Assembly: GCA_017524165.1 (NCBI GenBank)
Contig: JAFWUH010000048.1
Location: 4,359 to 68,358, forward strand
DNA length: 64,000 nucleotides
Source of the DNA: Clostridia bacterium
Lineage (GTDB): Bacteria; Bacillota; Clostridia; Oscillospirales; Acutalibacteraceae
Direction of reading: 5' to 3'
The position numbers and the translations under genes were made by a program. Below are positions 23,813 through 60,893 of the stretch, one piece after another. Below the pieces are notes generated by a model that worked only from the letters and a program-made list of their open reading frames with translations, had not been told where the DNA came from and did not search any database. Every line of letters starts with the position of its first letter. Position 1 is the stretch's first letter.

Positions 23813-23834
23813 CGTTCTTCCTCCTATTAAAATT

Positions 23835-27557: not shown

Positions 27558-27578
27558 GCACTTTCCCCTTTTTTTACA

Positions 27579-29651: not shown

Positions 29652-29661
29652 AAGTATTACC

Positions 29662-32223: not shown

Positions 32224-32245
32224 ACAATTCCCAATCCTAACTTAT

Positions 32246-33670: not shown

Positions 33671-33718
33671 GAGATAACCTCCTGTTTATTGATACTCTTT
33701 CCAGAGTAATTTCAACTG

Positions 33719-34660: not shown

Positions 34661-34673
34661 ACTGCTCACCCCC

Positions 34674-38200: not shown

Positions 38201-38217
38201 GTTGCACTCCCCCTACT

Positions 38218-40383: not shown

Positions 40384-40405
40384 ATTCTCCCTCTTTTCCT
40401 TCTGT

Positions 40406-41272
40406 CTAATCTTTCATGCCCGAAGTAGCGAGTGTTTCCACGATCTGAGATTGCGTAAATACGAACAAAATGATCGGTACCATCATCATCAAGACCGTCG
40501 CCGCCGCAGAAGCGCCCACACGGGTAACACCGCCTGCCAAAACCTGATGCAACGCATAGTTCAACGGTTTCAAATCCTCACGGTAAATATAGTTGGTATC
40601 GCTTAAATTCCACAGTCCCTGGAAAGAGAATATAATCAAGGTCAACCATGCGGGGCGAACCATCGGCATAACAATGGTGAAAAAGATGCGATATTCATTT
40701 GCACCCTCGATTCGTGCCGCTTCCAAAATACCGTCGGGAACCATTTGCTCGACGAACTGTTTCATCAAATACAGTCCCAAGGAAGAACCGAATGCCGGCA
40801 CCACCAACGCCGCCAACGAATCGATCCATCCGATTTTCGACATGATAATAAAGTTCGGAATAGCCGTAACGGTGGTATTGAACATTAAGGAAAGGACAAC
40901 CAAATTGAAAATGAAGTTTTTCCCGCGGAATTTGAATTTACAAATTGCATAGGCGCACATGGAAGACAAAACCACATGACCGCCGGTACCGACAATCGAC
41001 ACAAACAAGGTATTGCCGACATAGCGGGAAAACGGAATCAACGAGTCATCCAAAATGGAAAACAAATCTTTAAAGTTTTTAAAGGTGGGATTTGCCGCAA
41101 AAAAGCGCGGCGGGTAAACCCATAATTCATCGGCCGGTTTTAACGAAGTGGAAATGGCGTAAATCATCGGCAACGCCATAAAAGAGCCGAAGAGGAAGAG
41201 AAACAGCGCAATGCAGATATCTCCGCCCAAAGAACGGTTTAAACGGTGAGTATGTAATTTCATTTTTTTCAT
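40406..41272 (-). CDS. Carbohydrate ABC transporter permease (MalG-like)
   Basis: EAA loop LEAARIEGANEYRIFFTIVMPMVRP, multi-TM. Confidence 0.85.
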   Translation of the reverse strand: MKKMKLHTHRLNRSLGGDICIALFLFLFGSFMALPMIYAISTSLKPADELWVYPPRFFAANPTFKNFKDLFSILDDSLIPFSRYVGNTLFVSIVGTGGHVVLSSMCAYAICKFKFRGKNFIFNLVVLSLMFNTTVTAIPNFIIMSKIGWIDSLAALVVPAFGSSLGLYLMKQFVEQMVPDGILEAARIEGANEYRIFFTIVMPMVRPAWLTLIIFSFQGLWNLSDTNYIYREDLKPLNYALHQVLAGGVTRVGASAAATVLMMMVPIILFVFTQSQIVETLATSGMKD

Positions 41273-41273
41273 C

Positions 41274-42170
41274 TTACGAACCCACCTTTGAAATAATTTT
41301 ACGAATAACCATGTTGCTTAATACCATGATGATAAACAGCACGGTTGCAATGGCGGAAGCATAACCCAATTCGTATTTGGTATTACCGTAATCCTGCAAG
41401 TGGTTGAGGATGGTATGCGCCGCATAGTTGGTGGACGGGAATCCGCACAACTGCGTGACAATGGTGCCGACGCCGAACGCCGCGGTAATACTCAAAACCG
41501 CACTCAAGAGCATCTGCGGACGCATAAGCGGCATCGTCACATACCAAAGCTCCTGCCAACGGTTGGTCACACCGTCAATAGCGCTGGCTTCGTAATAGGA
41601 TTTATCGACGCCTTGGAAACCGGCGATAAAGGTCAGAAAGCTGGTTCCCAAGCTACTCCATAAGGAAACGATGGCGACGATGGTCAAAATATACTTTTCA
41701 TCCTTCAACCAAATAATCGGACTGGAGATAAAGCCCATATTCATCAGGAAACCGTTCAAATAACCGTAGGCGTCACCGCTGAATACAGCTCTCCAAACCA
41801 GGTACATGTTACCCGAAATAGACGGCGCATAGAAAATCAAGGTGACAATGGCTCTGCCTACGGGTTTTAACTCGTTGATAAACCACGCAAACAAAAGGCA
41901 AAGCAGATAACCGATCGGTCCTGTTATCAATGCCAGAATAAAGGTATTGCCGATAGATTTAATAAAGATATCATCCTGCAAGAACAAGCGCGTATAGTTG
42001 GATAATCCGATAAATCCGGGCATTTCCAACATATTGAAGTCGGTAAAACTCAATAAAATCGAAATCAAAACCGGCAGAACGGTAAAGACACAAAAAATGG
42101 AAAAATACGGCAAAACAAAGGTCCACGCAACAATGCCGTGATGATTAAATTTGCTTTTATTTTTACGCAT
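41274..42170 (-). CDS. Carbohydrate ABC transporter permease (MalF-like)
   Basis: EAA loop YEASAIDGVTNRWQELWYVTMPLMRP, multi-TM. AAGGAG SD. Confidence 0.85.
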   Translation of the reverse strand: MRKNKSKFNHHGIVAWTFVLPYFSIFCVFTVLPVLISILLSFTDFNMLEMPGFIGLSNYTRLFLQDDIFIKSIGNTFILALITGPIGYLLCLLFAWFINELKPVGRAIVTLIFYAPSISGNMYLVWRAVFSGDAYGYLNGFLMNMGFISSPIIWLKDEKYILTIVAIVSLWSSLGTSFLTFIAGFQGVDKSYYEASAIDGVTNRWQELWYVTMPLMRPQMLLSAVLSITAAFGVGTIVTQLCGFPSTNYAAHTILNHLQDYGNTKYELGYASAIATVLFIIMVLSNMVIRKIISKVGS

Positions 42171-42182
42171 TTATTTCACTCC

Positions 42183-45056: not shown

Positions 45057-45071
45057 TGTCATGCCTCCTAT

Positions 45072-45083
45072 TTTGTATTATTA
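45072..45083 (+). promoter_or_regulatory. Copy of shared element (TTTGTATTATTa, 11/12) in the operon A leader
   Basis: Read directly from the sequence. Lies between the predicted operon A promoter and the SBP start codon. Confidence 0.4.
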
Positions 45084-45144
45084 TTGATATTATTTTTTTA
45101 TTATGCAAATAAAGTATACCATGTTTCAATAAAAATTTCAACAT

Positions 45145-45196: not shown

Positions 45197-45208
45197 TTTG
45201 TATTATTT
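45197..45208 (+). promoter_or_regulatory. Copy of shared element TTTGTATTATTT (exact)
   Basis: Lies between the divergent -35 boxes of operon A and the regulator gene. Confidence 0.45.
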
Positions 45209-45243: not shown

Positions 45244-45272
45244 TTGACAAATCATTTAAAAAATTGTATTAT
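45244..45272 (+). promoter_or_regulatory. Candidate sigma-A promoter of the regulator gene
   Basis: TTGACA (45244-45249), 17-nt spacer, TATTAT (45267-45272). The -10 overlaps aTTGTATTAT (45263-45272), a 9/12 copy of the shared element. Confidence 0.55.
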
Positions 45273-45331: not shown

Positions 45332-46417
45332 ATGCCTTATACCGGAAAAAAACTCGCCATCGTGCAAACATATCTTTTAGATTATATTCGCGCCCATTCA
45401 TTGACTGTCGGCGCTAAACTTCCTACCGAGAAAGAAATGATGGAACATACCGGCGTCAGCCGAGTCACGCTTCGCCGTTCGTTGGCAAATATGCAGGATG
45501 AAAAACTGATTTACAGTGTTCAAGGTTCCGGCTACTTTGTCGGTGACGGTTGCGATGCGTTGCGCGTCGATACCATCCCGTTGATCATTTCCTATAATCA
45601 TGAAAACTCAAAAATCCTGAACATTGTTCATGGGGCACAATCCTATCTGGAAAAGCACCATTGTCAATTGGATCTTCGCATTTCCAAGAAAAATTCCGAA
45701 ATTGAGAAGCAGACGCTCGAACAGCTTTATCAGGAAGGGTACCGCTGTGCGATCGTTTTTCCGGTTTCCAGTGAAGAAAATGCGGACTTTTACTTTGAGA
45801 TGATACAAAAGGGGATGCACCTTGTCTTTATTGACCGTAAACCGAAAGGACTTTCCTGCTGTAATCTGGTAACTTGCGATAACATGACCGGCGGATACCT
45901 TGCAACAAAACACTTGATCGAACAAGGACACCGCAACATTGTTGCTTTCGGCTTAGAACCGTTGGAACATATCTCCGCCGTTTCGGAACGGTATGCCGGT
46001 TATCGCCGCGCTCTGAAAGAACACGGTATACCCGAACCGCCAAAAAGTTATTACTACGCACAATACCGTAAATATAATGAAGATATTGAAGCAATTCTGA
46101 ATCCTGAAAACAGGATCACCGCTGTGTTTGCCATCAATGATCATGCAGCGGTTGATATTGCCACGCACGCCTACGAACACGGTCTGAAGGTGCCCGACAG
46201 CTTAGCTGTTATCGGTTTTGATAACCTCGATATCACAGCAGTTTTTTCTCCGCATCTTTCGACCATTGACCAACCATTTACGCAATTAGGTGAAGTTTCG
46301 GCGAAGCTTGCCTACAAAATTTTGACCCATGCCGTTCAGGGATTTACCCAACGCGTGTTACCCGTTAAATTGATTATCCGTGAGTCAACACAGAGAAAAT
46401 TTTCGCTTTTCCGTTAA
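45332..46417 (+). CDS. AraR-like transcriptional regulator: GntR-type winged HTH fused to a LacI/PBP1-type sugar-binding domain
   Basis: N-terminus LPTEKEMMEHTGVSRVTLRRSLANMQDEKLIYSVQGSGYFV (GntR wHTH). C-terminal part AVFAINDHAAVDIATHA...LAVIGFDN (LacI-family effector domain). Divergent from operon A. Confidence 0.8.
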   Translation: MPYTGKKLAIVQTYLLDYIRAHSLTVGAKLPTEKEMMEHTGVSRVTLRRSLANMQDEKLIYSVQGSGYFVGDGCDALRVDTIPLIISYNHENSKILNIVHGAQSYLEKHHCQLDLRISKKNSEIEKQTLEQLYQEGYRCAIVFPVSSEENADFYFEMIQKGMHLVFIDRKPKGLSCCNLVTCDNMTGGYLATKHLIEQGHRNIVAFGLEPLEHISAVSERYAGYRRALKEHGIPEPPKSYYYAQYRKYNEDIEAILNPENRITAVFAINDHAAVDIATHAYEHGLKVPDSLAVIGFDNLDITAVFSPHLSTIDQPFTQLGEVSAKLAYKILTHAVQGFTQRVLPVKLIIRESTQRKFSLFR

Positions 46418-46490: not shown

Positions 46491-49400
46491 TTACTCTTTT
46501 TTCTTTTTGAAGAGTAAAAAGCCAAGCACGCCGGCCGCAATCACGGTTACGCCCAAAGCGATTCCGGTCGCAATGACCGCGCGAACCAAGCCCTTCGGGA
46601 ATGCCGATAAGGCCTCGGCACGAAGACCGCCGTTCAACTTATTACCGACATTCTTGCCCGGCACGACGCTGCCGCCGATGCTGATGGTTTGACCGCCGGT
46701 TGCGGTTGCACTCTGTACCCCTGCTGTGGTGACCTGCAGATTATCCAGATTGATGACGCAATCCGGAGATCCGGGCTCTGCGCCGATGAAGTAGATACGG
46801 AAATAATTCATTGCTTTGTTATTCAGTCCGCCGCGCGCCTGATTCTGCGGTTTATCCAAATTAAAGCAGAAATGGTACCATTTATTTCCAACATCGCCGG
46901 CATTGAAATCTGCCGCCAGTTCGGGGCAAGCCGTCAGGATGGTAGACTTCATGTAACGGTTGGACTCAACATCGCAGGTGCCCGAGGAGGTCAATTCGAC
47001 CATCCATCCGGTTGTCGTGTTAAGGAAGGTAATATCCGAAAGGAACAGATCGAATTGCAGATAGTGATAATCCGAAATATCAATCGGCTTTGCCGGACGG
47101 TAAACGAGTTCTTTCAGAATACCGTTCTTCGCCGTAACGGTAATGGAAGCGTCACCCTCGGTTTTATTGTTTTTATCCGGCATAACTTCCTGACCGGAAG
47201 CCGACCAACCCGCCGCGCTGTCCGCGTTGTTGATGATCAGGTAATCCTTGGTACGGATCACATCGGGTTGTTTCTCACCCTTTGTGAATTTCATGTTATC
47301 AAACTTCACGGTGTAATCCGGCGTACCCTCTTTTACTTGAACAGAGTAGAAACGGAAATAGTCAAATCCGGTCTTATCCAAACCGCCCTTGACAGAAGCG
47401 TGCGGACGATCCAGATTCAGCTTGAAGTGATACCACTTGTTTCCGCCCTTGCCGCTTTCAACATCATCCGCAAACGAGGGGGAAGCTTCCAACATGGACG
47501 ACTTGGTGTACCGGTTGGATTCCTTGTCACAAACCCCGGCGGAGGTCAACTCAAACATGGTGCCCTCGCAGGCTTTAAACCAAGACAAATGAGAGAAGAA
47601 GACATCGAATTCCAAATACTGATAATCCGAAATATCCAACGCTGCTTTCGGTTCGAAAGAAATTTGCTTTAATACGCCGCCTTTAGCAACTGCGGAAATA
47701 GAACTGTTTCCTTCTGTTTTTTGTGCAAAATCCATGGAAACGGTCGTTCCGGAGGCTTTCCAGCAGGAGTCAGTTTCGGCATTGGTCATCCACACCGAGT
47801 TATCGTCGATCTTCTTACCGTAGGAAAGATCCGGAGAAATCACATTGCCGCCATTGTTGCCCTCTCCATTGGTGCCTTCGCGGGTAAACTTCATATTATC
47901 CAAGCGAACATCAAAATCTGATGTAGTTTGCGGAGCGCCGATCGCGAAGAAGCGGAAATAGTTCAATTTTTGGGCATTCAAACCACCGCGTGCGGTTGTT
48001 TGCGGAGCAGCCAATTTCAATTTAACATGATACCAGCCCGGTTGCGTAGAACCTGCCACACCTGCCGAATAGAGTTCCGGCACATTGTCGCGCAGATAAC
48101 CCTTCATATAACGGTTGGATTCGTTATCCGAAGATCCGGAAGAGGTCAACTCGAACATGATGCTTTCCGAAGTATTGAACCATTCCATATTTGAAGTATA
48201 TAAATCAAATTCCAAATAATCGTAGGAAGAGACATCTAACGAAGTACCCGGAGAATAGACCAACTGCTTCAACACACCCTTCGGTGCCGTAGTACCGACA
48301 GAGGCTTTTCCCTGTGTAAAGAGCGCGGTATCGTTTTGAACGGTAGAGCCGGAAGAACTCCAACCGTTTTTATTTTCAGCATCGTTGAACCACATATTGC
48401 CGTTTTTATCCAAGCTTCCCGGCGTGGTATCTTCGATCGCCTCGGCATACACATCCGTTTCACTGCCGGGTGTCGGCAATGTATCGGCACGCAAGGTCAT
48501 TGCGTCAAAGAGCACGATACCATTTTGATTATCCTCTACGCAGATTTGTAAATCCGCCAAGGTCTTCAAAATCGTAGTACTGTCGGGCAAAACCTTGCCC
48601 TCTGCATTCACCAAACGCTTGAAGTTAAAGGTGTATTGCTGATAGTCGCCGGCGTTGATTTCATAAGCCGTTGACAGCGAAGATCCGGTCACCGCGGTTG
48701 CATAGAAGGTTTCGCCTCCCGCAACCAGTCGAACCGACAGTTTCTTCGCGCGAACATCCGGGTTCTTCGCATAAAGCGAAATACCGGTATAGTGCTGATA
48801 CTGTTTGATCATTCCGCCGTAGTTCAAGACCGGCGCGAGCACTGCGGTGTCTGTACCGCTGATCTCATAGGAGAGTTTTGCCGCGGCAATACCCTCATAA
48901 CGGCTTTCCGCATCGGCTGTAACAACCGCATTCGCAGAAGTGCTGAAGGTCGGCTTGAATCCGGCGTCCAAAGAAGTCAACGCTTCCCATGTTGTGGCAC
49001 TGTCGCAGTAGCCCCAATCGGTTGAAAGATCATAGATTGACGCCACTTTGTCACTGCGATAAGGAACTGCAGGAATGCCCAACGAGTTTGCCAAATTGGC
49101 AACCATGTTGAAGGAGGACCATGCATAGGTCACCGCAACCGGTGCGGCAACGGCGTCACTCCAAACCTCTACGGTATTCGGCGAGGTGATCTTGGCATTT
49201 GCTTTGACAAAAACGCGGGAAGCGTCCGCAACAGCAAAGCCATGCAAGGTATCAGATGAATCATTGATCTTTAAGGTGTCGCCGACATTCTTAAAGGTCA
49301 AAACCGCTTTGTTGCCGTTCATTTGAACCGAAGCAACACTCGGTGCGGTAAATCCGTCGGCATTGCCGACGCCGTATACCCCGGCAAGTACCGCCGCCGC

Positions 49401-52400
49401 AAAACGGTCGGCAACATCTTTCTTGCTGTTGGGGTGGATCGGGTCGGGGTTATTGATCGGTGGATCTTTATATTGCAGGGACAAATCGTAAATCGGGATT
49501 TGGATCAACTTCGAGGATGATTTTTCGGCAACACGATTCAACATTTCAGCAAAGGTTGCCAAAACCGTAGTATAATCGTTTGCACGGATGCTGGCGTTGT
49601 TATAGGGCGCCAGATGTGCACAGACAAACGGCATATTACCGTTTTCAAAGCCGAAAAGTTTGCTGTAAGAGTCGATCAATCCGTCTAACGCATATTCATA
49701 GAAAGTATTATACCCGTCTTCGTCGGCATACTTGACATTGCTTTCGCCCTGATACCAAAGGACGCCGCTGATTTCCACACCGGCAAGCGGCGCGATTTTC
49801 GCGTTAAATAAGGTAGTCAAATAGGTCCAGTTAGAGGTCGTTTGATCCAACTGTTCCGCGGTTTTATAGATACCGCGACTCTGCAGAACGCTCTTGACCT
49901 GCGGCGTATTTTCAATAACCTCCCGCGGCATCCACGATTCAATGACCGATGCGCCCTTGGCGGTATTGAGGAACCCGACCGGGACATTCAACTGTTGCTG
50001 CAGTTCTAAAGACATATAATAGGCAATTGCGGAGATATATTTTACATCGACCGCGTTGGAGCCGTCCGCCCACTTGGCGCCTTCAATTTCACGAACCGGA
50101 GAAGAAGGCAGAATCGCCGTTACACCGCCCGGAACCAACGGAATATCAAAGAAGCGTACCTTTTCATTGAGCGGGATCAGAGAATAATCGTAATCCTTGA
50201 TCGTTTGCAACACGAAATATTCCATGTTGGACTGACCTGCGGCAAGCCACAATTCACCGATCAGAATATTCTCGATCGTTTCGGTCAATTTATCTTCGAC
50301 ATAAATTTTAATGGTATACGGGGTATACCCACCGGCGCGAGCAGCAAAAGCCAAAGAGAAACTGCCATCGCTCTGTGAAACGGTATTGACTGTCTCCAAA
50401 ACATTTGTGCCGTCCGACAATTCGGCTTTAATATTCTGTCCCGCCGTCTCCACATTACCGAAAACATTCATCGGCTTGTTTTGTTGGAACATCATGCCGT
50501 TGCTGAAGTAGGAAGAAACGATATGTTCCTCTTTCAAATTGGTGATCGCAATATCTTCAATGCGGACATTAAAGGTATCATCACCCGCGGCACGGCTGTA
50601 GAAACGGAAATAATTAATGTTGGCAAGATTCAAGCCGTTATCGTTCGCCGCATTGGAAATCAACAACTTTAAGTTGTTCCAACCGGACTTCAAGCCGAGC
50701 TTCGGCACCGACCAGTTAGCTTCCTGCTTATCGCAATTTCCCGAGGAGGTCAATTCGATCTGACCTTCATTGGTGAATTCCAGAATATTGTCACTACCGT
50801 CGGTGTTTTCAATATAAATCCGCATGGTCAAATACAGTTCATTCTTCTGATAAGCTGATAAATCCAGCGAGAACTGGTTCAGCACAAAGGAGAAGGTGCC
50901 GGTAGTATTGTTCTTCTGCATACTGCCCGGGATCTGCCAAACGCCCTCCTGCGATACCTCGGACGGCTGACCTTCGCTCAAAACCGCAATGACATTGTCA
51001 ATTTTAAAGATGGCATCCGGCAAGGTGGTATCCAACGGTGTAGTCGGCAGTGTATAGAAACAGAAGGTCTTGAAGTTAGTCAAATTGACCTTGCTGTCAG
51101 ACGGCACTTCCACCGATGCATGATACCAGTTGTTCCCGCTTTCGGTGATGGTCATATCCGAAAGGGTGAACCGTTCGGTCTGACTGCCGTCACCGATTTC
51201 AACGCCGATATAGTTTTCATAAGACGATTGGATGGCGTCCCACATTTTAAAGGAAGCGTCATTATTTTTAAAGCATTGAAAATCAAATTCAAACTGATGG
51301 TATTTGGATAGATCCAAACCGGAAGTATCGGTATAAGTTAATTTTCTCAACGCGCCGTAACCGGTGTAAACATAAACCGAATTTCCGTTCAAACCGGAGG
51401 TGTTCAGTTGCATATTCGCCGCATTGCCCGAATAAGACCAACCATCCAACGAATTACAGTCACTGACGGTAATGGATTCGTCCACCACCACATTTTCCTT
51501 ATCAAAATGCGCTACCAAATTATCCAAACGATAGATCGCCGTATTGACCGACTGATCTAATGTTGCCGTCGTATTCGTATAAACCGAGAACGAAGCAAAT
51601 TTAGAAAGATCAAGCTTTCCGGTTGAGGAAGTGGGATCCAAAGCGTTGATGGAAACATGATACCAACAATTTCCAAGTGCTTCCACCTTCCACTTGTTCA
51701 AACCGTAGGTGGCGGTCACGGTACCGTCGGAAATTTCGACTGCGATTTTATCGCTGTATGCCGCTGTGACCTCACTCCACATATCGTAGGCAGTGTCGTT
51801 CTGCTTCATACACATCATGTCAAATTCCAAGGTGTTATATTTAGACAGATCGACCTTATCCGAAAAGGTCATTTTACGCAATGCGCCGTAACCGGTATAA
51901 ATATTAATGGCACTATTGGTCATACCGTTGGTAGAAATGCCGACATTTCCAATGTTGCCGCCGTATCCCCAGCCGGTCAGATCCTCACACTGAGAAAGAA
52001 CCAAATCGTCCGTTTCCTGCGGAACTTCGGGTTCCTCCTCTTCGGAACGAAGGTTGTGCGCCACAATGTTATCCAGACGAAGGTGACCGTTGCGTACCGA
52101 AGCGCTGACTCCGCCATCTTTGGTGGAAAAATGGAAAACGGTCATTTTGGTCATATCAAAACTGCCGGTTGTGCTCGACGGATCGTCCAAATTGATCGAG
52201 AAATGATACCACAACGGGCTTTCGGTATTCTGCGCCACCGTCATTTTAGACAGACGGTAAACATTATAATCCGTTGCAGAAGAACCGATTTTGACATAAA
52301 CATCGTCATTATAAGTGGTCTTGATTTCATCCCACATACCGGCATTACCGCCCGTGTGCATCATAACATCCCATTCGATGTTCTGATAGGGAGAAATATC

Positions 52401-52655
52401 TAACGGCGTTGCCGCAGTGTAATCGCAATCGCGAAAGGCGCCACTGTTGATATCGCAGGCTATGGCACTGCCGGTGCGGCCGTTCGCATTGATTGCCAAA
52501 TTATTGCCGGAGGTTTTGGTCCATCCGGTTAAATTTTCACAATCACTGATAGTTAATGTATTCGGCAAATCATCCGTTGCCCATGCAGGGATCATGGTGA
52601 GCCCGGACAGAACAATGGCAATTGCACAAATAATCGCTATGACTCTTTTATTCAT
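46491..52655 (-). CDS. 2054-aa cell-surface multi-module protein: signal peptide, 3 type-A modules, 1 type-C module, SASA/DUF303-type SGNH esterase, further beta-sandwiches, 3 type-B modules, C-terminal TM anchor
   Basis: AGGAGG SD. Signal peptide MNKRVIAIICAIAIVLSGLTMIPAWA. Esterase motifs GELWLAAGQSNMEY, LWYQGESN and DPIHP. C-terminal LVRAVIATGIALGVTVIAAGVLGFLLFKKKKE. Confidence 0.85.
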   Translation of the reverse strand: MNKRVIAIICAIAIVLSGLTMIPAWATDDLPNTLTISDCENLTGWTKTSGNNLAINANGRTGSAIACDINSGAFRDCDYTAATPLDISPYQNIEWDVMMHTGGNAGMWDEIKTTYNDDVYVKIGSSATDYNVYRLSKMTVAQNTESPLWYHFSINLDDPSSTTGSFDMTKMTVFHFSTKDGGVSASVRNGHLRLDNIVAHNLRSEEEEPEVPQETDDLVLSQCEDLTGWGYGGNIGNVGISTNGMTNSAINIYTGYGALRKMTFSDKVDLSKYNTLEFDMMCMKQNDTAYDMWSEVTAAYSDKIAVEISDGTVTATYGLNKWKVEALGNCWYHVSINALDPTSSTGKLDLSKFASFSVYTNTTATLDQSVNTAIYRLDNLVAHFDKENVVVDESITVSDCNSLDGWSYSGNAANMQLNTSGLNGNSVYVYTGYGALRKLTYTDTSGLDLSKYHQFEFDFQCFKNNDASFKMWDAIQSSYENYIGVEIGDGSQTERFTLSDMTITESGNNWYHASVEVPSDSKVNLTNFKTFCFYTLPTTPLDTTLPDAIFKIDNVIAVLSEGQPSEVSQEGVWQIPGSMQKNNTTGTFSFVLNQFSLDLSAYQKNELYLTMRIYIENTDGSDNILEFTNEGQIELTSSGNCDKQEANWSVPKLGLKSGWNNLKLLISNAANDNGLNLANINYFRFYSRAAGDDTFNVRIEDIAITNLKEEHIVSSYFSNGMMFQQNKPMNVFGNVETAGQNIKAELSDGTNVLETVNTVSQSDGSFSLAFAARAGGYTPYTIKIYVEDKLTETIENILIGELWLAAGQSNMEYFVLQTIKDYDYSLIPLNEKVRFFDIPLVPGGVTAILPSSPVREIEGAKWADGSNAVDVKYISAIAYYMSLELQQQLNVPVGFLNTAKGASVIESWMPREVIENTPQVKSVLQSRGIYKTAEQLDQTTSNWTYLTTLFNAKIAPLAGVEISGVLWYQGESNVKYADEDGYNTFYEYALDGLIDSYSKLFGFENGNMPFVCAHLAPYNNASIRANDYTTVLATFAEMLNRVAEKSSSKLIQIPIYDLSLQYKDPPINNPDPIHPNSKKDVADRFAAAVLAGVYGVGNADGFTAPSVASVQMNGNKAVLTFKNVGDTLKINDSSDTLHGFAVADASRVFVKANAKITSPNTVEVWSDAVAAPVAVTYAWSSFNMVANLANSLGIPAVPYRSDKVASIYDLSTDWGYCDSATTWEALTSLDAGFKPTFSTSANAVVTADAESRYEGIAAAKLSYEISGTDTAVLAPVLNYGGMIKQYQHYTGISLYAKNPDVRAKKLSVRLVAGGETFYATAVTGSSLSTAYEINAGDYQQYTFNFKRLVNAEGKVLPDSTTILKTLADLQICVEDNQNGIVLFDAMTLRADTLPTPGSETDVYAEAIEDTTPGSLDKNGNMWFNDAENKNGWSSSGSTVQNDTALFTQGKASVGTTAPKGVLKQLVYSPGTSLDVSSYDYLEFDLYTSNMEWFNTSESIMFELTSSGSSDNESNRYMKGYLRDNVPELYSAGVAGSTQPGWYHVKLKLAAPQTTARGGLNAQKLNYFRFFAIGAPQTTSDFDVRLDNMKFTREGTNGEGNNGGNVISPDLSYGKKIDDNSVWMTNAETDSCWKASGTTVSMDFAQKTEGNSSISAVAKGGVLKQISFEPKAALDISDYQYLEFDVFFSHLSWFKACEGTMFELTSAGVCDKESNRYTKSSMLEASPSFADDVESGKGGNKWYHFKLNLDRPHASVKGGLDKTGFDYFRFYSVQVKEGTPDYTVKFDNMKFTKGEKQPDVIRTKDYLIINNADSAAGWSASGQEVMPDKNNKTEGDASITVTAKNGILKELVYRPAKPIDISDYHYLQFDLFLSDITFLNTTTGWMVELTSSGTCDVESNRYMKSTILTACPELAADFNAGDVGNKWYHFCFNLDKPQNQARGGLNNKAMNYFRIYFIGAEPGSPDCVINLDNLQVTTAGVQSATATGGQTISIGGSVVPGKNVGNKLNGGLRAEALSAFPKGLVRAVIATGIALGVTVIAAGVLGFLLFKKKKE
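46728..48407 (-). repeat. Three tandem type-B CBM-like modules (about 175 aa each)
   Basis: Shared motifs GVLKQ-[LI], S-x-Y-x-YLEFD, MFELTS-[SA]-G-x-x-D-x-ESNRY-x-K, WYH-[VF]-K, NYFR-[FI]/DYFRFY and DNMKFT. Confidence 0.7.
49371..50267 (-). other. SASA/DUF303-type (sialate O-acetylesterase-like, SGNH) carbohydrate esterase domain
   Basis: GQSNM encoded at 50223-50237 (checked against the nucleotides). LWYQGESN. D-P-I-H (DxxH) near the domain end. Confidence 0.7.
50979..52556 (-). repeat. Three tandem type-A CBM-like modules
   Basis: Modules begin DCENLTGW, QCEDLTGW and DCNSLDGW. They share TGYGALRK-[ML]-T, DLSKY-x-x-[LF]-EFD, WYH and [IY]-[YF]-[RK]-[LI]-DN-[LV]-[VI]-A. Confidence 0.7.
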
Positions 52656-52670
52656 TTTGTCCTCCTACCC

Positions 52671-53501
52671 TCACGAGCGTTTATTCTTACGAACAAACAA
52701 GATAATCATCACAACAATGACAGCCACAACAACCGCTGATACAGCAATTTCAACAATCAGGAGTGTTTTCAACTGACCGCTCAGCGCCGCGTTGGTGTCT
52801 TCTCTTTTTACCACATAAACGCTGGCTTCCTCTGACTCTTTCGTGTTCTCTGTTTTACTGGCATCCTTTTCTTCCTCTTCAACCGCCGGTTTATAGTTAG
52901 AAGGATTATTGGTAAAACGCATATTGTCGATACGAACGGTATAATCCGGCGTCGTGGTGATCGGATCTACCGTATAAAAACGGAAGTAGTTAAAATTGGC
53001 TTTATCTAATTTTCCGTTTGCCGTTCCCTGCGGGTTATCCAATTCAAATACAAAGTGCCACCAGTTTTGCCGGTCTTCGATCGAACCGGTTGAGAACAGA
53101 TTCTTCAACACTTTTTTCATGTAACGGTTGGATTCCTTATCGCAGGTGCCCGAGGAGGTCAACTCAAACATGACCGAACCGCACTCGGTAAACCAGGTGA
53201 TATCGCTGAAATAAATATCAAATTCCAAATAGGAATACTTGGAAGCGTCCAACGGACTTTCCGGTGTATAAACCAGCTGGTTCAACTTGCCGTTGATGGC
53301 TGTTGCGCCAATCGAACCGGTTCCCTCGGTGCAATTTGATCCGTCGGTTTCCAACGCATCCATACCCTGACTGTTTGCCGCCCAATTGGCGGAACTGTCG
53401 CAATTATTTACGATCAGATCATCGGTACCCTCGGCAAATGCCGGCATACCGAGTGAAAAGATCAGGAGTATCACAGTTAAAAATACCGTAAACTGTTTCA
53501 T
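52671..53501 (-). CDS. 276-aa surface protein: signal peptide, one type-B CBM-like module, acidic linker, C-terminal TM anchor
   Basis: GGAGGAAAAA SD. Signal peptide MKQFTVFLTVILLIFSLGMPAFA. Module motifs KYSYLEFD, MFELTSSGTCDKESNRYMK, NWWHF, NYFRFY and DNMRFT. TM LLIVEIAVSAVVVAVIVVMIILFV followed by RKNKRS (nt 52692-52763). Confidence 0.85.
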   Translation of the reverse strand: MKQFTVFLTVILLIFSLGMPAFAEGTDDLIVNNCDSSANWAANSQGMDALETDGSNCTEGTGSIGATAINGKLNQLVYTPESPLDASKYSYLEFDIYFSDITWFTECGSVMFELTSSGTCDKESNRYMKKVLKNLFSTGSIEDRQNWWHFVFELDNPQGTANGKLDKANFNYFRFYTVDPITTTPDYTVRIDNMRFTNNPSNYKPAVEEEEKDASKTENTKESEEASVYVVKREDTNAALSGQLKTLLIVEIAVSAVVVAVIVVMIILFVRKNKRS

Positions 53502-53519
53502 TTGTTTTTCCTCCGAAAC

Positions 53520-56327
53520 TCAGGACCACCAGGTTGCATTTTCGGTAACCTTGGCGCCGGTGTTTTTCATGGTGATCTTTGCGCCGTCGACCGGTGCCAT
53601 AAAGGCAAGCTCCTGACGGCAAATATTGGCATTCAACATAACTTTCGCACCGTTTTCCGCACGAACCTGACAGGCCTTGGGCGGCAACATAACCGATCCG
53701 TAATACACTTCGCCGCCGGTTGCCGTTAACAGATACGGCGTGCTGTCCATGTTGAAATAAGAAAGCTGACTGATGACCAATCTGCCACCGCACATTTTAA
53801 TGGATTCCGGTTTCGGTTGCGCCCACATCATGGAGTTGTAAAGAGCTACGGTACCGCGTACCGATTCCTTCATCAAAATGTGGTTCATATCCTTGTCGCC
53901 GTTCATGGAAACCAATTCTGCATTGATAAATTCGACCACATCGGCGTCCTCTACTACCAAAGCGTTTCGGCATCCGTCCGAGCCGTGACCGATCACGGTA
54001 CTGTTCAAACCGCCCTTGCCCTGTGAAACGAGGACCAACAAACGATTCGCGCCGTAAGCGAAGTTTCCTAACATATGTTCAGATTTGTTATCGCCGAAAA
54101 TGAAAACATCGAGGGTCTCGTTGATGACATTATTCAATTCGGTTTCTCCGGTAGCCGGTTTTTGGGAAAGCGCCGCGCGTTTCCAGTAGTGCGGGTTGAA
54201 CTGACAGTTTTCCACCCATCCGTTGCTGTCATTATTGCCGACAAACATGCCTTTGACCAACGGTGCGCCACTGCAATAATTGATGTAGTGTCCCGCCGAA
54301 GGATTGGTTGCAAAATCCATGGCCTGATAAGAGTTAATGAAAACGCTGTTGATCGCCCAGCAGTTTTTACCCAAAGAACGAACGGTCCACGGATACGGAA
54401 TGAAATCGGTATAAGACTGTTCCGGATAGTAGAACGAAATGCCGTTGATACCGGAGCCCTCCTGCAAGCTGACAAACGGCTCGCCGTTGGCATTGCCTTT
54501 GCCAAGGGTGGTAAAGATGACCGAACCCTTGGTTACACTGTGCGTCGGTACATTGTAGACGCCGCGCAATTCCACACCGGTCGGAATAACCAGATTTTTA
54601 TTGACGGTATATTCCCCGCCCGGGACATAAACGATACCGCCTGTTTTTTCCGCGGCGGCGATCGCGTCCAAAAATGCCTGTGTACTGTCCGCACCGCTCT
54701 TGGCGCCAAAATCCACAACATTGTAAACATTGGTGGAAGAGGCGGTCGGGATACTGCGGCGATAAACATGCAATCTTCCGCTTGTTACCGGCAGATTCAA
54801 CGGTGTATGATCAATTTTTACAAAGGATGCTTTGTAACTGTCATATTTAATGTCCGGCTTGTTACCGTCGAAGGTACAACCCATGATCGAAAGACCGCCG
54901 CATTCTTCGGAGAATTGAAGATGCTTGGACTTTCCTGCAAAGGAGCATTGCTGAACGCTGGCACTGCCCTTATACATAGTAAAGGCGTAGTTGCCTTGTT
55001 TCCAATCGGAAAAATGACTGTTTAATACGGTCAAATGTCCGGTGCCGTGACAAGCAAACTGTTGTTTGATCGTACCCGAAACGGTCAGATTCTGGAAATC
55101 ACAGCTTGCCGTAAATCCCGCGTTCAGCAAAACGCCGAAAGCACATTTATCGGTTCCCTTAATATTGATATCACTGAACACACAACCGATATCGTTGGTG
55201 GCTTGAATATCAATACCGATATTACAATCGTTCAAATTCACATTACAGTACTGTGCGTTGGCAGCTCTCTTTTCATTATTAAAGATTTGACGGATCGCAC
55301 AGTAAATGCCGTCGGCATGGAAATCGTAAATATATTCCCAGTCGGAACGCTGCATCCAAAGACCGACCGCATAATTAAACATATAATCACGCAAAACAGC
55401 GTCGTCTTCCTTGCTGAACGGGAACATGGTATTTTTCAAATAATAATCAGGTGAAAGATGAATGCCTTCCAAACGACCGATATCGGTAACATTATCAATC
55501 ATGATCGCGTTATTGAAGGCTGTAATATAGAGGTTTTTCAGATAGTGCAATTCACTCCAGGAAACATTGCCCTGATAGCCGTTCCAACAACCTGCGATGG
55601 TGGTATTCATCACGGTGAAGCTATCACCGCCGGCCTCTTGAATGGTCGCCGGATATTTTGCAACCTCTTCCGCCGTCTGGTCGGGGTAGATAATGGTCAC
55701 ATTACGCAATCCGGAGCCTGCCGCCATCTTGATAAAGGGCGAACCGCTTTCTCTGCCGCGGAATTTGCTCTTGACCACCATCACCGTGCCGCAGCTGCCG
55801 ACCGGCGCTTCGTCCGGGCTGACCCATTCCCCGCGCAGAGTGACACCGGCAGGAATCTGGAAGGTGTTTTCACAGAGGTAAATGCCTTCGGGCATATATA
55901 CCACGCCGCCGCCCGCTGCCGAGGCTTTCATCAAGGCGCGCTGAATGGCGGAGGTTGCATCCTTGGTGCCGTCAATGCAAGCATTGAAGTCTTCCACCAC
56001 ATTGTAAATTGCCACGCAAACGCCGGTGCCGTCATCATATTGAACATCCACGGCATACGGTTCACCGGCTTTTCTCTTGCCCGCTTCTGCTTTTTTCGGA
56101 AGGATTACCGGCGTGTCATCGTCGATAAAATTCAATCCGGAAAGGAATTCGTTACCTTGAATGTTCTCCGGTACGGCGACCTTATTTACCGCTTCGGTCG
56201 GATAGGCAAAGCTATGCTTTAAATTACCGAACGATATTGTCTGTTTTTGCTGTTTCTCTCCACAGCCGCCGAGAACACTCACCAGTAGGACTACGCATAA
56301 AATCAGGACTGATAATCTGATTTTCAT
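53520..56327 (-). CDS. 935-aa lipoprotein with two tandem right-handed beta-helix domains (paralog of 23835..27557)
   Basis: Lipobox LLVSVLGGCGEKQ. TSAIQRALMKASAAGGGVVYMPEGIYLCENTFQIPAGVTLRGEW and YNVVDFGAKSGADSTQAFLDAIAAAEKTGGIVYVPGGEYTVNKNLVIPTGVELRG. Long blocks near-identical to the paralog (FIPYPWTVRSLGKNCWAINSVFINSY, VGNNDSNGWVENCQFNPHYWKRA). Confidence 0.8.
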   Translation of the reverse strand: MKIRLSVLILCVVLLVSVLGGCGEKQQKQTISFGNLKHSFAYPTEAVNKVAVPENIQGNEFLSGLNFIDDDTPVILPKKAEAGKRKAGEPYAVDVQYDDGTGVCVAIYNVVEDFNACIDGTKDATSAIQRALMKASAAGGGVVYMPEGIYLCENTFQIPAGVTLRGEWVSPDEAPVGSCGTVMVVKSKFRGRESGSPFIKMAAGSGLRNVTIIYPDQTAEEVAKYPATIQEAGGDSFTVMNTTIAGCWNGYQGNVSWSELHYLKNLYITAFNNAIMIDNVTDIGRLEGIHLSPDYYLKNTMFPFSKEDDAVLRDYMFNYAVGLWMQRSDWEYIYDFHADGIYCAIRQIFNNEKRAANAQYCNVNLNDCNIGIDIQATNDIGCVFSDINIKGTDKCAFGVLLNAGFTASCDFQNLTVSGTIKQQFACHGTGHLTVLNSHFSDWKQGNYAFTMYKGSASVQQCSFAGKSKHLQFSEECGGLSIMGCTFDGNKPDIKYDSYKASFVKIDHTPLNLPVTSGRLHVYRRSIPTASSTNVYNVVDFGAKSGADSTQAFLDAIAAAEKTGGIVYVPGGEYTVNKNLVIPTGVELRGVYNVPTHSVTKGSVIFTTLGKGNANGEPFVSLQEGSGINGISFYYPEQSYTDFIPYPWTVRSLGKNCWAINSVFINSYQAMDFATNPSAGHYINYCSGAPLVKGMFVGNNDSNGWVENCQFNPHYWKRAALSQKPATGETELNNVINETLDVFIFGDNKSEHMLGNFAYGANRLLVLVSQGKGGLNSTVIGHGSDGCRNALVVEDADVVEFINAELVSMNGDKDMNHILMKESVRGTVALYNSMMWAQPKPESIKMCGGRLVISQLSYFNMDSTPYLLTATGGEVYYGSVMLPPKACQVRAENGAKVMLNANICRQELAFMAPVDGAKITMKNTGAKVTENATWWS

Positions 56328-56337
56328 CTGCTACACC

Positions 56338-59301
56338 TCATTTATTTGATTCAATTTGAAACGAATGAATTTCAAAAGGACGGTAATCGGTTTCGTCGGT
56401 TACCCGTTCTTCCTTTTCTTCGCAAAGATTGCAACGGTATACGGTCTCGCCGTCTAATCCGTTCAGCTTTGCCTTGGTACGGCGACCGGTCGCCTCGTAG
56501 GTACGAACAACCAATCCGTCGGAATTTTCCGCCTTTTTCACGCCGTCAATAATAACATTATCGGCGCTGATCGAAAGATAGCTGTGTGCGGTCTCTCCGT
56601 CGCCGACGGCAACCTCGCACATCTGCGGCTCGGTGTTGAAGCAAGCCGCGGCACGAACGGTTTGCAACAGCGAAGCCTCTGCATCCGAATAAATGCCGTA
56701 ACGGAAGGTTTGTTTGCCGAAATCCAAATCGGTTGCCGGATAATTGGTGCCGCGCAGGGCATTCAATTCAATGACATTGTCCTCCACGCCGTATCCGTAC
56801 TTGCAATCGTTCAAGAGTGCAAAGTTCAAGCCGGTTTCGGACAGGGCGATCCAACGATGCGCCGCCATCTCAATTTGTGCCTGCTGTTCGGTCGTGTTGT
56901 TGCGCGTCGAACGCTTGACCGTACCGAATTGCGTTTCACAACGCACATCATCCGAATCAATTACCGTATGAAAGGCAATTCGGAGCATTTTGTGCATTTC
57001 ATGCCAATCAACATCGGCTTTTACTTCCAACACGCGATCATTCGGTCCGAGTGAAAGTGAAAGCACCATATCCGAAGTGCCGTAATGATATTTCTGTATC
57101 ACCGTGACGCCGCAAGGTCCGACCTCGGTACGACTTTCCACCAACGGCACACGATCCGGCGTCTGATTGCGGTAATCGTACTGCAAATTCCACGCGTTTT
57201 CCATATCGTCATAAATATAGAGGATATTGGACGGACCGTTCAACAACTCCCTGCCGATTTCTTTATTGTAAATACTTTGAATACTACCGTCTTCAGCCAA
57301 GGTAACCTTTACATAAGCGTTTTCCAATGCCGTCATGTCGGATCGAACGGTTTCACCCGCCAAGTCGACCACCGCATATCCCATCGGCGGCAAGGTTACG
57401 GTCATCATACCTTCATCGGATTCCACCGTGTATTCACGCGCAAAGGAGAGCGTATTGAAAATCGCCGCCGGACGCTTTTGCGCCGGAACGGAAATCTGCT
57501 TTGCCAATACTGAAACCGCTTCATCGCGCAACGCTTTTGTCTCTTCATAGAGTGCTTGATAGCGTTCTAAACATTCATTGTAGACCCGTTGAATGGAAGA
57601 ACCGGGTAAAATATCATGGAATTGATACAACAGGACTTCTTTCCAAATTCTTTCAAAGTCCTCCGCCGGATAAGCAAACCCGGCTTCCCGATGGGCTATT
57701 GCGGCAAAAAATTCCGCATCACGCAAGGTTTTTTCCATCAGTCGGTTGTAGTATTTATTTCTCGCTGCCGAGGTGTAAACGCCCAAATGGCGTTCCAAAT
57801 ACATTTCATCCGCCCAAACCGGCAGTTCGTCGGCGCGTTCTTTTAAGCGTTCAAAGAAGTCTGCCATTTTACCCGGTGTGATGGGGCACAGTCCCGGCAA
57901 ATTGCGTTCACGCTTTAAATATTCCAGATGGGAAGGACTCGGTCCGCCGCCGCCGTCACCAATGCCGAACGGCAACAGCGCTTCGCCAAATTGACCGTTT
58001 TGCGCCAAACGGCGGGTTGCCCGCCGTACCGAGCGTGCCGTACCTTCGCTGACATAACTGCCTTCCGGCGGCATATGTACCAAAACTTCGGAGCCGTCGA
58101 TTCCCTTCCAACGGAAGTTGGTATACGGGAAATCGTTGATCAGATTCCAAGACATTTTGATCGTTGCAAAGTATTCAATACCCGCTTTGCGGAAGATCTG
58201 CGGCAAAGCCGCCGAATAGCCGAAGGTGTCCGGCGTCCAGACATAGTTGGTACGCTGACCGAATTCTTTCTGCCAAAAAGCATTTCCGTAGAGGATCTGA
58301 CGAACGACCGACTCGCCCGAAATGAGGTTTAGATCCGGTTCTACCCAAACGCCGCCCAGCAATTCCCAGCGACCGTCAGCAATGGTTTTTTTTACTTTTG
58401 CGTACAAATCCGGATGATCTTCCTTCACCCAATCGTACAACTGGGGCTGACTGGCACCGAAGAGATAATCCGGATAACGGTTCATCAATTCCAATGCGGT
58501 TGCGAAGGTTCTGGCACCCTTTCTTCGGGTTTCACGAAGCGGCCACAGCCACGCCAGGTCAATGTGCGCATGACCGAACGCCGTCAACGAAACAGCGGGA
58601 TTTTCACCGCCCTGCATTGCCAATCTTTTGCCGGTGATCTCAAGACATTTTTTCATTTCACTCTCATCGAAATGAATTAATTCTTTCCGGCATTGACTTA
58701 ATACATTTAAAATTTCATATTTGATCGGATCCTCGTTCGGCGTGTTTTCCGCCTGAACCAGTAAGACGATCATATCATAAAAAAGTGTTCTTGCAATGTC
58801 ATTACAGCTGGCTAAAAAGGCTTCTTTGATTCTGCCGTTTTCTTTCAGATTTCCGGTCAGATCGTTACAGCCGGCGTCCATCCAAAAATCAACCGGATCA
58901 CCGCCTTGAGCAGCTTCCTTAAACTGAATGATTCTTTTGCCGGGATTTCCCATCGCACGGTCGAAGGTGGAGTTGACATTTGTCACTCCGCGAAGGGGAC
59001 ATCCGCTATCGTCATAAATCAGACCCTCACCGTTGATATCAATGACATAAACGATCTTTTTGCCCTTTGCCTCTTCCGGCACTCTGCCGGTGAAATGAAA
59101 CCATGCACAGTCAAAAAGCTCGCCCCAGGATTCACCGACCTGAACCTTGCGATATTCGCCCGTTGTCCGTTGTGCAAAGGGAATCGGTTCTTTTGATTTG
59201 TATATTTCAATATCCAAATCCGAAACCTTTGTGTACACGCGGTTTTTTACCCGTTGCACGCAATTCCGCAGATTTTCAAACACGTATTTTTCATTAAACA
59301 T
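56338..59301 (-). CDS. GH38 alpha-mannosidase (Ams1/MngB-like long form), cytoplasmic
   Basis: FGHAHIDLAWLWPLRETRRKGARTF, GGVWVEPD and TPDTFGYSAALPQI. Start moved to ATG 59301 (MFNEKYVF...; GGAGGA SD, 7-nt spacer). The ORF-track start at 59322 is a TTG with no SD. Confidence 0.85.
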   Translation of the reverse strand: MFNEKYVFENLRNCVQRVKNRVYTKVSDLDIEIYKSKEPIPFAQRTTGEYRKVQVGESWGELFDCAWFHFTGRVPEEAKGKKIVYVIDINGEGLIYDDSGCPLRGVTNVNSTFDRAMGNPGKRIIQFKEAAQGGDPVDFWMDAGCNDLTGNLKENGRIKEAFLASCNDIARTLFYDMIVLLVQAENTPNEDPIKYEILNVLSQCRKELIHFDESEMKKCLEITGKRLAMQGGENPAVSLTAFGHAHIDLAWLWPLRETRRKGARTFATALELMNRYPDYLFGASQPQLYDWVKEDHPDLYAKVKKTIADGRWELLGGVWVEPDLNLISGESVVRQILYGNAFWQKEFGQRTNYVWTPDTFGYSAALPQIFRKAGIEYFATIKMSWNLINDFPYTNFRWKGIDGSEVLVHMPPEGSYVSEGTARSVRRATRRLAQNGQFGEALLPFGIGDGGGGPSPSHLEYLKRERNLPGLCPITPGKMADFFERLKERADELPVWADEMYLERHLGVYTSAARNKYYNRLMEKTLRDAEFFAAIAHREAGFAYPAEDFERIWKEVLLYQFHDILPGSSIQRVYNECLERYQALYEETKALRDEAVSVLAKQISVPAQKRPAAIFNTLSFAREYTVESDEGMMTVTLPPMGYAVVDLAGETVRSDMTALENAYVKVTLAEDGSIQSIYNKEIGRELLNGPSNILYIYDDMENAWNLQYDYRNQTPDRVPLVESRTEVGPCGVTVIQKYHYGTSDMVLSLSLGPNDRVLEVKADVDWHEMHKMLRIAFHTVIDSDDVRCETQFGTVKRSTRNNTTEQQAQIEMAAHRWIALSETGLNFALLNDCKYGYGVEDNVIELNALRGTNYPATDLDFGKQTFRYGIYSDAEASLLQTVRAAACFNTEPQMCEVAVGDGETAHSYLSISADNVIIDGVKKAENSDGLVVRTYEATGRRTKAKLNGLDGETVYRCNLCEEKEERVTDETDYRPFEIHSFQIESNK

Positions 59302-59339
59302 CTTTTCGTCCTCCATGCCCAACGAATTTTGTTTTATAA

Positions 59340-59351
59340 AAATAATACAAA
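59340..59351 (-). promoter_or_regulatory. Copy of shared element TTTGTATTATTT (exact, minus strand) in the operon B leader
   Basis: The plus strand reads AAATAATACAAA. Lies about 23-34 nt downstream of the predicted operon B transcription start. Confidence 0.45.
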
Positions 59352-59380
59352 TACAATGTGTCCAGCTTATTTTTCACGCT

Positions 59381-59409
59381 ATTATATCATATTACAAAAA
59401 TATTGTCAA
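59381..59409 (-). promoter_or_regulatory. Consensus sigma-A promoter of operon B
   Basis: Minus strand reads TTGACA (59409-59404), 17-nt spacer, TGaTATAAT (TATAAT at 59386-59381). Confidence 0.6.
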
Positions 59410-59448
59410 CAAAATGAAGAACATTTTTGGCGATTTTTCAAAAAGTTA

Positions 59449-59477
59449 TTGCAATAAAAAGGATGATGTGTTATAAT
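59449..59477 (+). promoter_or_regulatory. Near-consensus sigma-A promoter of the FAD-oxidoreductase gene
   Basis: TTGCAA (59449-59454), 17-nt spacer, TGtTATAAT (TATAAT at 59472-59477). Confidence 0.6.
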
Positions 59478-59486
59478 ATAGAAAAA

Positions 59487-59498
59487 TTTGTATTATTT
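59487..59498 (+). promoter_or_regulatory. Copy of shared element TTTGTATTATTT (exact)
   Basis: Starts 10 nt after the -10 box of the oxidoreductase promoter, an operator-like position around +4 to +15. Confidence 0.45.
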
Positions 59499-60821: not shown

Positions 60822-60870
60822 CTTTATAAAAAAAGCAAGAGCGGCACCATCCTTTCGGATGACGCCGCCC
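60822..60870 (-). terminator. Terminator for the convergent SASA/dockerin gene (may also stop plus-strand transcription)
   Basis: 12-bp stem GCGGCACCATCC / GGATGACGCCGC (2-nt internal mismatch) with loop TTTC. The minus strand continues CTTGCTTTTTTTAT. No T run on the plus strand. Confidence 0.5.
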
Positions 60871-60893
60871 TTATTGAAAAAATGGGACATCAA

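Follow-up and report, generated by a model that had tools for sequence, protein, structure and literature searches.

The cluster and its repeated box

The 12-mer TTTGTATTATTT recurs in two divergent intergenic regions of a gene cluster that occupies much of a 64-kb stretch of contig JAFWUH010000048.1 from a Clostridia bacterium (the whole stretch is referred to below as the window). One of these regions, a spacer of 269 nucleotides (nt) with a G+C (GC) content of 21%, separates operon A (21854..45062, minus strand), a series of genes on one strand separated by small gaps, from a plus-strand gene (45332..46417) for a candidate repressor that combines a GntR winged helix with a LacI/GalR-type sugar-binding domain, the architecture of AraR. 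The other (206 nt, 26% GC) lies between the ATG of the GH38 alpha-mannosidase gene of operon B (59301) and that of a flavin adenine dinucleotide (FAD)-dependent oxidoreductase gene (59508). Operon B (46491..59301, minus strand) consists of four genes, encoding the GH38 alpha-mannosidase (56338-59301), a pectate-lyase-fold protein (53520-56327), a protein of 276 amino acids (aa; 52671-53501) and a 2054-aa protein with a SASA-esterase domain (46491-52655), all on the minus strand. The oxidoreductase gene (PF12831; 59508..60812, plus strand) is monocistronic and is followed by a terminator at 60836-60873. Operon A encodes a 959-aa solute-binding protein, four ATP-binding cassette (ABC) permeases, an NHL/Yip1 protein, a DUF5696 protein, a second GH38 protein, a GH42-like protein, a pectate-lyase-fold protein and a dockerin protein.

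A first-pass annotation of the window had reported the 12-mer on either side of the promoters of operon B and the oxidoreductase gene, with one further copy elsewhere, and had considered three copies unlikely to arise by chance. We recovered exactly these three copies in the 64 kb, at 45197-45208 on the plus strand, in the operon A/regulator spacer, and at 59340-59351 (minus) and 59487-59498 (plus), in the GH38/oxidoreductase spacer. Shuffling of the whole window yields an expectation of 0.05 copies. Given that such shuffling was judged too lenient for AT-rich spacers, we restricted it to the two spacers (475 nt), preserving the dinucleotide content. Under this stricter model, 12-mers with two copies are frequent (664 of 2000 shuffles), whereas any 12-mer with three non-overlapping copies was obtained in 4 of the 2000 shuffles, which bears out the original assessment. 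The two copies in the GH38/oxidoreductase spacer are part of a perfect 13-nt inverted repeat, AAATAATACAAAT / ATTTGTATTATTT. The 9-nt core of the repeat, TTGTATTAT, hereafter the box, is found in five exact copies across the window (45073, 45198, 45264 and 59488 on the plus strand and 59342 on the minus strand) versus 0.47 expected. All five are located inside the two AT-rich divergent intergenic regions and none elsewhere in the window, and no box was found in the other spacers of the window.

Each box overlaps, or is downstream of, a predicted core promoter. Operon B is preceded by a predicted minus-strand promoter, TTGACA-17-TATAAT (59381..59409), which matches the consensus at 12 of 12 positions and carries a TG extension; both hexamers are kept in relatives. 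The box in the leader of this operon (59340..59352, minus strand; core TTGTATTAT at 59342-59350) includes the exact 12-mer and the 13-mer ATTTGTATTATTT and falls roughly between +23 and +35 of the predicted transcript. Next to it, 4 nt away and adjoining the ribosome-binding site of the GH38 gene, is a degenerate plus-strand box with one mismatch, TTGTTTTAT (59329..59337), so that the two form a head-to-head pair, TTGTtTTAT-aaaa-ATAATACAA. On the opposite side of the spacer, the predicted oxidoreductase promoter, TTGCAA-17-TATAAT with a TG extension (59449..59477, plus strand), is followed by the box at 59487..59498 (plus strand; core 59488-59496), which is placed between the -10 element and a GGTGA ribosome-binding site. 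This box starts 10 nt past the -10 element and covers about +3 to +12 of the transcript. The positions originally given for the two boxes relative to their promoters are thus accurate.

In the operon A/regulator spacer, the predicted promoter of operon A, TTGAAA-17-TATACT with a TG extension, is on the minus strand at 45113..45141; relatives have TTGCAA-17-TATAAT at the same position. The operon A leader contains a plus-strand box (45073..45081) beside the ribosome-binding site of the solute-binding-protein gene, within the sequence TTTGTATTATTA, which differs from the 12-mer by one mismatch. The third exact 12-mer (45197..45208, plus strand) is located between the promoters of operon A and the regulator, approximately 46 nt upstream of the -35 element of the latter. 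Finally, the box at 45264..45272 (plus strand) overlaps the -10 hexamer (TATTAT) of the regulator's own promoter, TTGACA-17-TATTAT (45244-45272), and is a probable site of autoregulation.

Several other features of the cluster deserve mention. Operon A resembles a single transcription unit of ~23 kb comprising 13 genes, with two sets of ABC permeases, and its interior showed neither boxes nor obvious promoters. The solute-binding protein has a CBM35/Golvesin-like N-terminal region, and the NHL-repeat/Yip1 protein is a membrane fusion; a literature search on DUF5696 returned nothing. Strong GC-rich hairpins with T-runs on both sides, resembling bidirectional terminators, occur at 46441-46475, where they part the regulator gene from the end of operon B, and at 60836-60873, where they part the oxidoreductase gene from a convergent minus-strand gene for a 1032-aa SASA-domain protein (60894-63992). 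At the other end of the window, an open reading frame (ORF) on the minus strand (5181-9827; 1548 aa) has no Pfam match at E<=1e-5.

Conservation of the box in related genomes

Orthologous loci were collected from metagenome-assembled genomes of Oscillospiraceae and Ruminococcaceae, giving nine genomes for each of the two spacer types, the window included. Coding sequences of the compared genomes are 48-82% identical and their GC content ranges from 38 to 63%. Orthologues of the regulator form a sharply bounded group, present in ~40 clusters at 48-71% identity, with all matches beyond this group at or below 41%.

The spacer between the regulator and operon A was compared in the window, L002 and L083-L089. 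The regulator gene is divergent from operon A in all nine genomes, and all nine spacers contain boxes, with one to four exact copies of TTGTATTAT per spacer, in addition to copies with one mismatch. The exact copies are invariably on the regulator-sense strand. Three positions recur. The box in the operon A leader, by the ribosome-binding site of the solute-binding-protein gene, is at the same position in 9/9 genomes (in L086, it reads TTGTATCAT). One or two boxes are located upstream of the regulator -35 element, where box pairs are 20-21 bp apart. The overlap with the regulator -10 element is found in seven of the nine genomes, with an exact or one-mismatch box (the exceptions being L087 and L089).

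The GH38/oxidoreductase spacer, compared in the window, L002/L103, L094, L095/L088, L090, L091, L092, L096 and L097, displays the same constancy of position. A box consisting of TTGTATTA followed by T, A or C is located 9-10 nt after the oxidoreductase -10 element in every one of the nine genomes. In an alignment of the oxidoreductase promoter from seven genomes, the invariant positions are the TTG of the -35 element, most of TGnTATAAT and AAAnTTGTATTA; the AAAtTTGTATTA block is invariant, whereas the adjacent AT-rich spacer varies. In the GH38 leader, boxes equivalent to the one at 59340 are present in the eight other genomes. Six of the nine genomes carry two direct plus-strand boxes 12 bp apart in this leader; in L002, the two boxes are 23 bp apart, L088/L095 have a single box, and the window has the degenerate plus-strand box, which corresponds in position to the first box of the direct pair in relatives, together with the inverted exact box. 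The oxidoreductase box of the window is solitary. The head-to-head pair at 59329-59350 of the window can be compared with the direct pairs at 7818-7838 of L094, 5819-5839 of L092 and 7819-7839 of L096, and it appears that one GH38-leader box has been inverted or re-created in the lineage of the window. Accordingly, the inverted orientation of the two copies, as initially described, is true of the window but peculiar to this genome, given that the GH38-leader boxes of the relatives are mostly direct repeats on the other strand. From leader box to oxidoreductase box, the distances fall into groups of 137-138, 145-150 and 159-161 bp. We do not claim looping from the helical phasing of these distances, because the spacer lengths are inherited and hence not independent.

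Base composition does not account for this pattern. The L002 genome, with a GC content of 63%, keeps four exact boxes, where ~0.6 one-mismatch matches would be expected. Across 15 loci, exact TTGTATTA occurs 42 times in 4.1 kb of the two spacer types versus 14 times in the 307 kb elsewhere, a 224-fold higher density, and from the base composition of the spacers only 1.2 copies would be predicted in them. As a negative control, species representatives from GTDB were scanned with the oxidoreductase, which returned 70 loci. Upstream boxes were present exclusively in the five loci with a divergent GH38 neighbour, in which the oxidoreductase is at least 71% identical, whereas none was found upstream of the oxidoreductase homologues (41-68% identical) in the ~60 loci that have no GH38 neighbour. 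Collectively, the conservation in the spacers, the enrichment and the negative control indicate, by sequence comparison, that the element is a conserved, cluster-specific cis-element. The boxes are highly non-random, confined to the two spacers and conserved in position across nine genomes; as is generally the case for operators, their position upstream of orthologous genes is fixed while the flanking spacer diverges. The first-pass annotation had named a lack of conservation upstream of orthologous operons as grounds for abandoning its proposal, and here the element is found at the same positions in nine genomes. Its assignment of operons A and B, the regulator and the oxidoreductase to one putative regulon gains support from this positional conservation and from the boxless distant oxidoreductase homologues.

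The 42 exact-core sites also served to delineate the motif. The core is TTGTATTA(T), preceded by A at position -2 in 37 sites and by T at position -1 in 32 sites, with T at position +8 in 36, which yields the extended 11-nt motif ATTTGTATTAT. Among these 42 sites, conservation does not extend further downstream, and neither a dyad partner nor a CNA/ACAA partner at a spacing of 5-8 nt is present, the left half, ATTTGTA, alone being conserved. As judged from these counts, the conserved functional unit is a box of 9-11 nt. Thus, the 12-mer is a genuine repeat but, as a unit, is longer than what is conserved.

The same comparison brought to light several differences in gene content at the right side of the cluster. 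In L088 (16290-17021) and L095 (7088-7810), the GH38 gene beside the oxidoreductase gene is an N-terminal remnant of 243 aa, matching Ams1-like_1st only, and this locus still keeps both the leader box and the oxidoreductase box. In L091 (7323-8312) and L092 (7327-8319), an aldo-keto reductase gene directly follows the oxidoreductase gene, the two probably forming an operon. Downstream of the oxidoreductase gene, L090 (56% GC) carries a block of genes resembling those of mobile elements (7790-13314; DUF6744, DUF3854 and Rad52/22), suggesting that the cluster has a variable right border.

The candidate regulator and known operators of this type

The predicted product of 45332-46417 has both domains of the AraR subfamily. 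Its N-terminal region (residues 13-70) matches the GntR winged helix-turn-helix family PF00392 (E=8e-13) and its C-terminal region matches PF13377 (E=6e-30) and PF00532 (E=3.5e-19), the LacI/GalR-type effector domains. Among solved structures, the N-terminal domain is most similar to the DNA-bound domain of Bacillus subtilis AraR (4EGY, E=2e-9), and the C-terminal domain of AraR (3TB6) also matches the regulator (E=5e-19). Full-length relatives with the AraR architecture outside the orthologous group are ~25-41% identical. In the public gene call (P0001), the protein is 351 aa long and starts 10 codons later, at 45362; the 361-aa form is probably correct, because the ATG at 45332 (MPYTGKKL...) is conserved in the orthologues from L001 and L002.

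In AraR, the operator of which is the 16-bp palindrome ATTTGTACGTACAAAT, R41 reads the G of the T/A-N-G core and Q61 of the wing reads the adjacent A/T, with R41 being positioned by E30 and R45, whereas H42 makes water-mediated contacts to the central CG of the palindrome (PMC3592433). The AraR contact residues E30, R41, T43, R45, Q61 and G62 are kept in the regulator, and in 21 regulator orthologues, E33, R44, T46, R48 and G65 are invariant and Q64 is nearly so. The position of His42 is occupied by Val. This set of residues fits a box that contains the AraR half-site ATTTGTA but neither the central CG nor the second half. The likeness to AraR thus includes the domain architecture, the left 7 nt of the box, which equal the AraR consensus half-site (PMC3592433), and the presence of several operators per promoter region, one of them at the promoter of the regulator gene itself. 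Repression by AraR is relieved by a sugar, and the same mode of action is suggested by where the boxes of the cluster are placed. By contrast, in place of the ATTTGTACGTACAAAT palindrome, the cluster has one conserved half-site followed by TTAT, in boxes that are usually direct repeats, and the genes under putative control are those for mannosidase and complex-glycan utilization rather than arabinose genes. We considered whether the protein is the arabinose repressor proper, that is, an AraR orthologue, and rejected this assignment, given that the sites are not the 16-bp palindrome and that no ara genes are found in the flanking operons, with their GH38, ABC transport, pectate-lyase-fold, SASA-esterase and FAD-oxidoreductase content.

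The box likewise resembles the operator of Escherichia coli FarR/MngR, which consists of direct repeats of TGTATTAWTT (PMC4494728). The 12-mer contains TGTATTATTT, which fits this sequence (PMC4494728), and direct inspection of the mngR-mngA spacer of E. coli K-12 revealed an exact copy of TTTGTATTATTT. Moreover, 18 consecutive nucleotides, ATTGTATTTGTATTATTT, are common to the K-12 spacer (2126-2143 of L164) and the window (59340-59357, minus strand). This identity includes the same overlap of two boxes at an offset of 6 nt and presumably reflects convergence on one binding specificity rather than common descent. MngR represses mngAB, of which mngB encodes a GH38 alpha-mannosidase (PMC12842492). 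Both systems have a GntR-type winged helix with an SRVT recognition helix and a QGSG wing (SRHT and QGGG in AraR), a divergent layout of regulator and target, and a GH38 alpha-mannosidase among the targets. There are also differences. The effector domain of MngR is of the HutC type (HutC/UTRA), whereas that of the window regulator is of the LacI/GalR type; the DNA-binding domains are 39-41% identical, with the similarity confined to residues 24-72; and the GH38 enzymes are 22% identical and are not orthologues. Transport relies on a phosphotransferase system in E. coli versus ABC systems in the cluster, and boxes are spaced by ~11 bp in E. coli versus 12, 21, 45 and 66 bp in this cluster.

A further precedent is StsR (SMU.1193) of Streptococcus mutans, a GntR-family regulator whose DNase I footprint on its own promoter is TATAATTGTATTATA, read as a 15-bp palindrome; StsR influences many sugar-transporter operons, with 188 genes changed in the mutant (PMC6340165). 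The footprinted sequence contains the exact 9-mer TTGTATTAT and shares 12 nt with the autoregulatory box region of the window, AATTGTATTATA (45262-45273), and both regulators are linked to sugar-transporter genes. Given that the MngR and StsR sites both contain this sequence, its recognition by GntR-type winged helices is documented.

Within the cluster, the AraR-like protein is the only local candidate with matching residues and most likely the binder of the boxes; the ORFs examined between 21.8 and 64 kb include no second regulator gene. A weak control was provided by 80 unrelated LacI/AraR-like loci, none of which includes an orthologue. The 13 GntR-type N-terminal matches, found in 12 of these loci, have SRYT, SRIT, SRTT, SRQT, SRAT or SRHT but never SRVT, and TTGTATTA is present upstream of one of the 13. 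The strict AraR-palindrome pattern had no match at the control loci, and a correlation between residues and operator was not established with this set.

A putative glycan-responsive regulon and its alternatives

Taken together, these observations suggest that each 12-mer represents one copy of an operator box of 11 nt, ATTTGTATTAT, which is probably bound by a GntR-type repressor, most likely the product of 45332-46417. The binding protein, its repressor function, its ligand and any cooperation or DNA looping between boxes are what we infer from the comparisons. In the proposed mechanism, the sugar-free repressor would occupy boxes at four places, namely, the -10 element of its own promoter, resulting in autorepression, the region immediately downstream of the oxidoreductase start site, and the transcribed leaders of operons A and B. 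As the boxes overlap or follow core promoters, the bound protein would block either the binding or the progress of RNA polymerase, that is, act by occlusion or as a roadblock, and AraR itself is a repressor (PMC3592433). The whole cluster would then be induced once a sugar derived from a glycan occupies the LacI-type domain and the repressor is released. The gene content of the cluster points to an alpha-mannoside-containing glycan as the source of this ligand.

The variety of box arrangements, including direct pairs at 12 bp, spacings of 20-21, 45 and 66 bp and the head-to-head pair, would be compatible with flexibly tethered DNA-binding heads; in AraR structures, the relative orientation of the monomers follows the spacing of the operator (PMC3592433). 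A more far-reaching and quite tentative possibility is that a single specificity (ATTTGTATTAT read by an SRVT/QGSG winged helix) has remained coupled to GH38 loci across phyla while the sensor was exchanged, with a HutC-type domain in MngR and a LacI-type domain here, and that a dimer of the AraR architecture, its heads being flexibly tethered, recognizes non-palindromic half-sites whichever way they are oriented. Such reading would account for the direct pairs of the relatives and the head-to-head pair of the window. Looping might in addition allow a dimer of this kind to span the divergent promoters and join boxes separated by 137-161 bp.

Several considerations weigh against operators bound by the adjacent repressor. 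The evidence is comparative throughout, and the relatedness of the nine genomes means that their sites do not count as independent observations. A GntR/AraR dimer would be expected to bind a palindrome, which the box is not, and several sites are solitary. Taken as a whole, the DNA-binding domain of the regulator resembles MngR (44 bits) no more than AraR (52 bits), and the match to the MngR operator accordingly rests on few residues. The box at 45264 overlaps a -10 hexamer, and its conservation could in part reflect promoter function. Finally, the inspection covered 64 kb of this genome, and a distant regulator or additional sites may exist.

The last point leads to the main residual rival, namely, that the boxes are operators of a different GntR-family protein encoded elsewhere, either a HutC-type regulator resembling MngR or StsR or a more global one, and that the AraR-like protein binds something else. 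The documented binders of the motif, FarR/MngR and StsR, indeed do not have the AraR architecture (PMC4494728; PMC6340165), and the stretch inspected is a limited part of the genome. We nevertheless consider this explanation unlikely: hardly any box lies outside the two spacers of the cluster in the 64 kb of the window and a further ~250 kb from related loci; the promoter of the adjacent regulator has a box in most related genomes; this regulator shares the SRVT/QGSG signature of MngR; and no other regulator gene turned up among the examined ORFs of the cluster. Less probable still is that the repeats are AT-rich sequences related to promoters, such as TATTAT resembling a -10 element or UP-like tracts, with no specific regulator involved. 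TTGTATTAT does contain the TATTAT that is the predicted regulator -10 at 45264, the promoter scan also pairs the box at 45073 with a TTGTCA at a distance of 17 nt, and the spacers have a GC content of 21-26%. However, the invariant G and the flanking A-T are outside a -10 or an extended -10 (TGn) element, most boxes are downstream of predicted -10 elements or by ribosome-binding sites and have no -35 partner, and the TTGTCA is missing from relatives. Furthermore, other spacers of the window are devoid of boxes, and the box is fixed while the neighbouring spacer varies. We therefore reject the promoter reading for most boxes; it accounts only for the TATTAT of the box at 45264.

An action of the element within messenger RNA leaders, as a site for a protein or a small RNA or as a structure controlling translation, is also very improbable. 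Three boxes are in 5' leaders near ribosome-binding sites, and the head-to-head pair allows the operon B leader of the window to form a weak hairpin. Yet the element is antisense in the operon A leader and in most operon B leaders of the relatives, has the sense orientation in the oxidoreductase leader and, at the regulator promoter, is transcribed only in part; it has no Rfam match, the fold of the leader is no better than that of shuffled sequences (z = -1.0), and the hairpin arrangement is not conserved. As to chance repetition in low-complexity DNA, which might be invoked because the spacers are very AT-rich and pairs of 12-mers are common in shuffled versions of them, the rarity of triplicate 12-mers, the excess of exact 9-mers over expectation and the occurrence of boxes at orthologous positions in a 63% GC genome leave it next to no probability, and the comparative data refute it.

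The motif itself is not new, since operators of this type are known from E. coli FarR/MngR, whereas the repressor-operator system appears to be undescribed for this lineage. On the strength of the sequence comparisons, we most likely deal with a local repressor-operator system of a familiar kind, in which a regulator of the AraR architecture is combined with a box of the FarR/MngR type, and no new mechanism needs to be invoked. The finding, while not mechanistically new, aids the annotation of an uncharacterized glycan-utilization cluster. It would define a testable regulon of ~37 kb in an uncultured Oscillospiraceae lineage of the rumen or gut, comprising two operons for ABC transporters and glycoside hydrolases, the FAD oxidoreductase and the regulator, and would tie DUF5696, the NHL-Yip1 protein, the 276-aa protein and the PF12831 oxidoreductase to one inducible pathway for alpha-mannosides or complex glycans. 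For the regulator family, it would give the small AraR subfamily a second functional type and extend the use of the FarR/MngR-type box beyond the HutC subfamily, which may be useful for formulating rules that predict operator sequences from regulator sequences.

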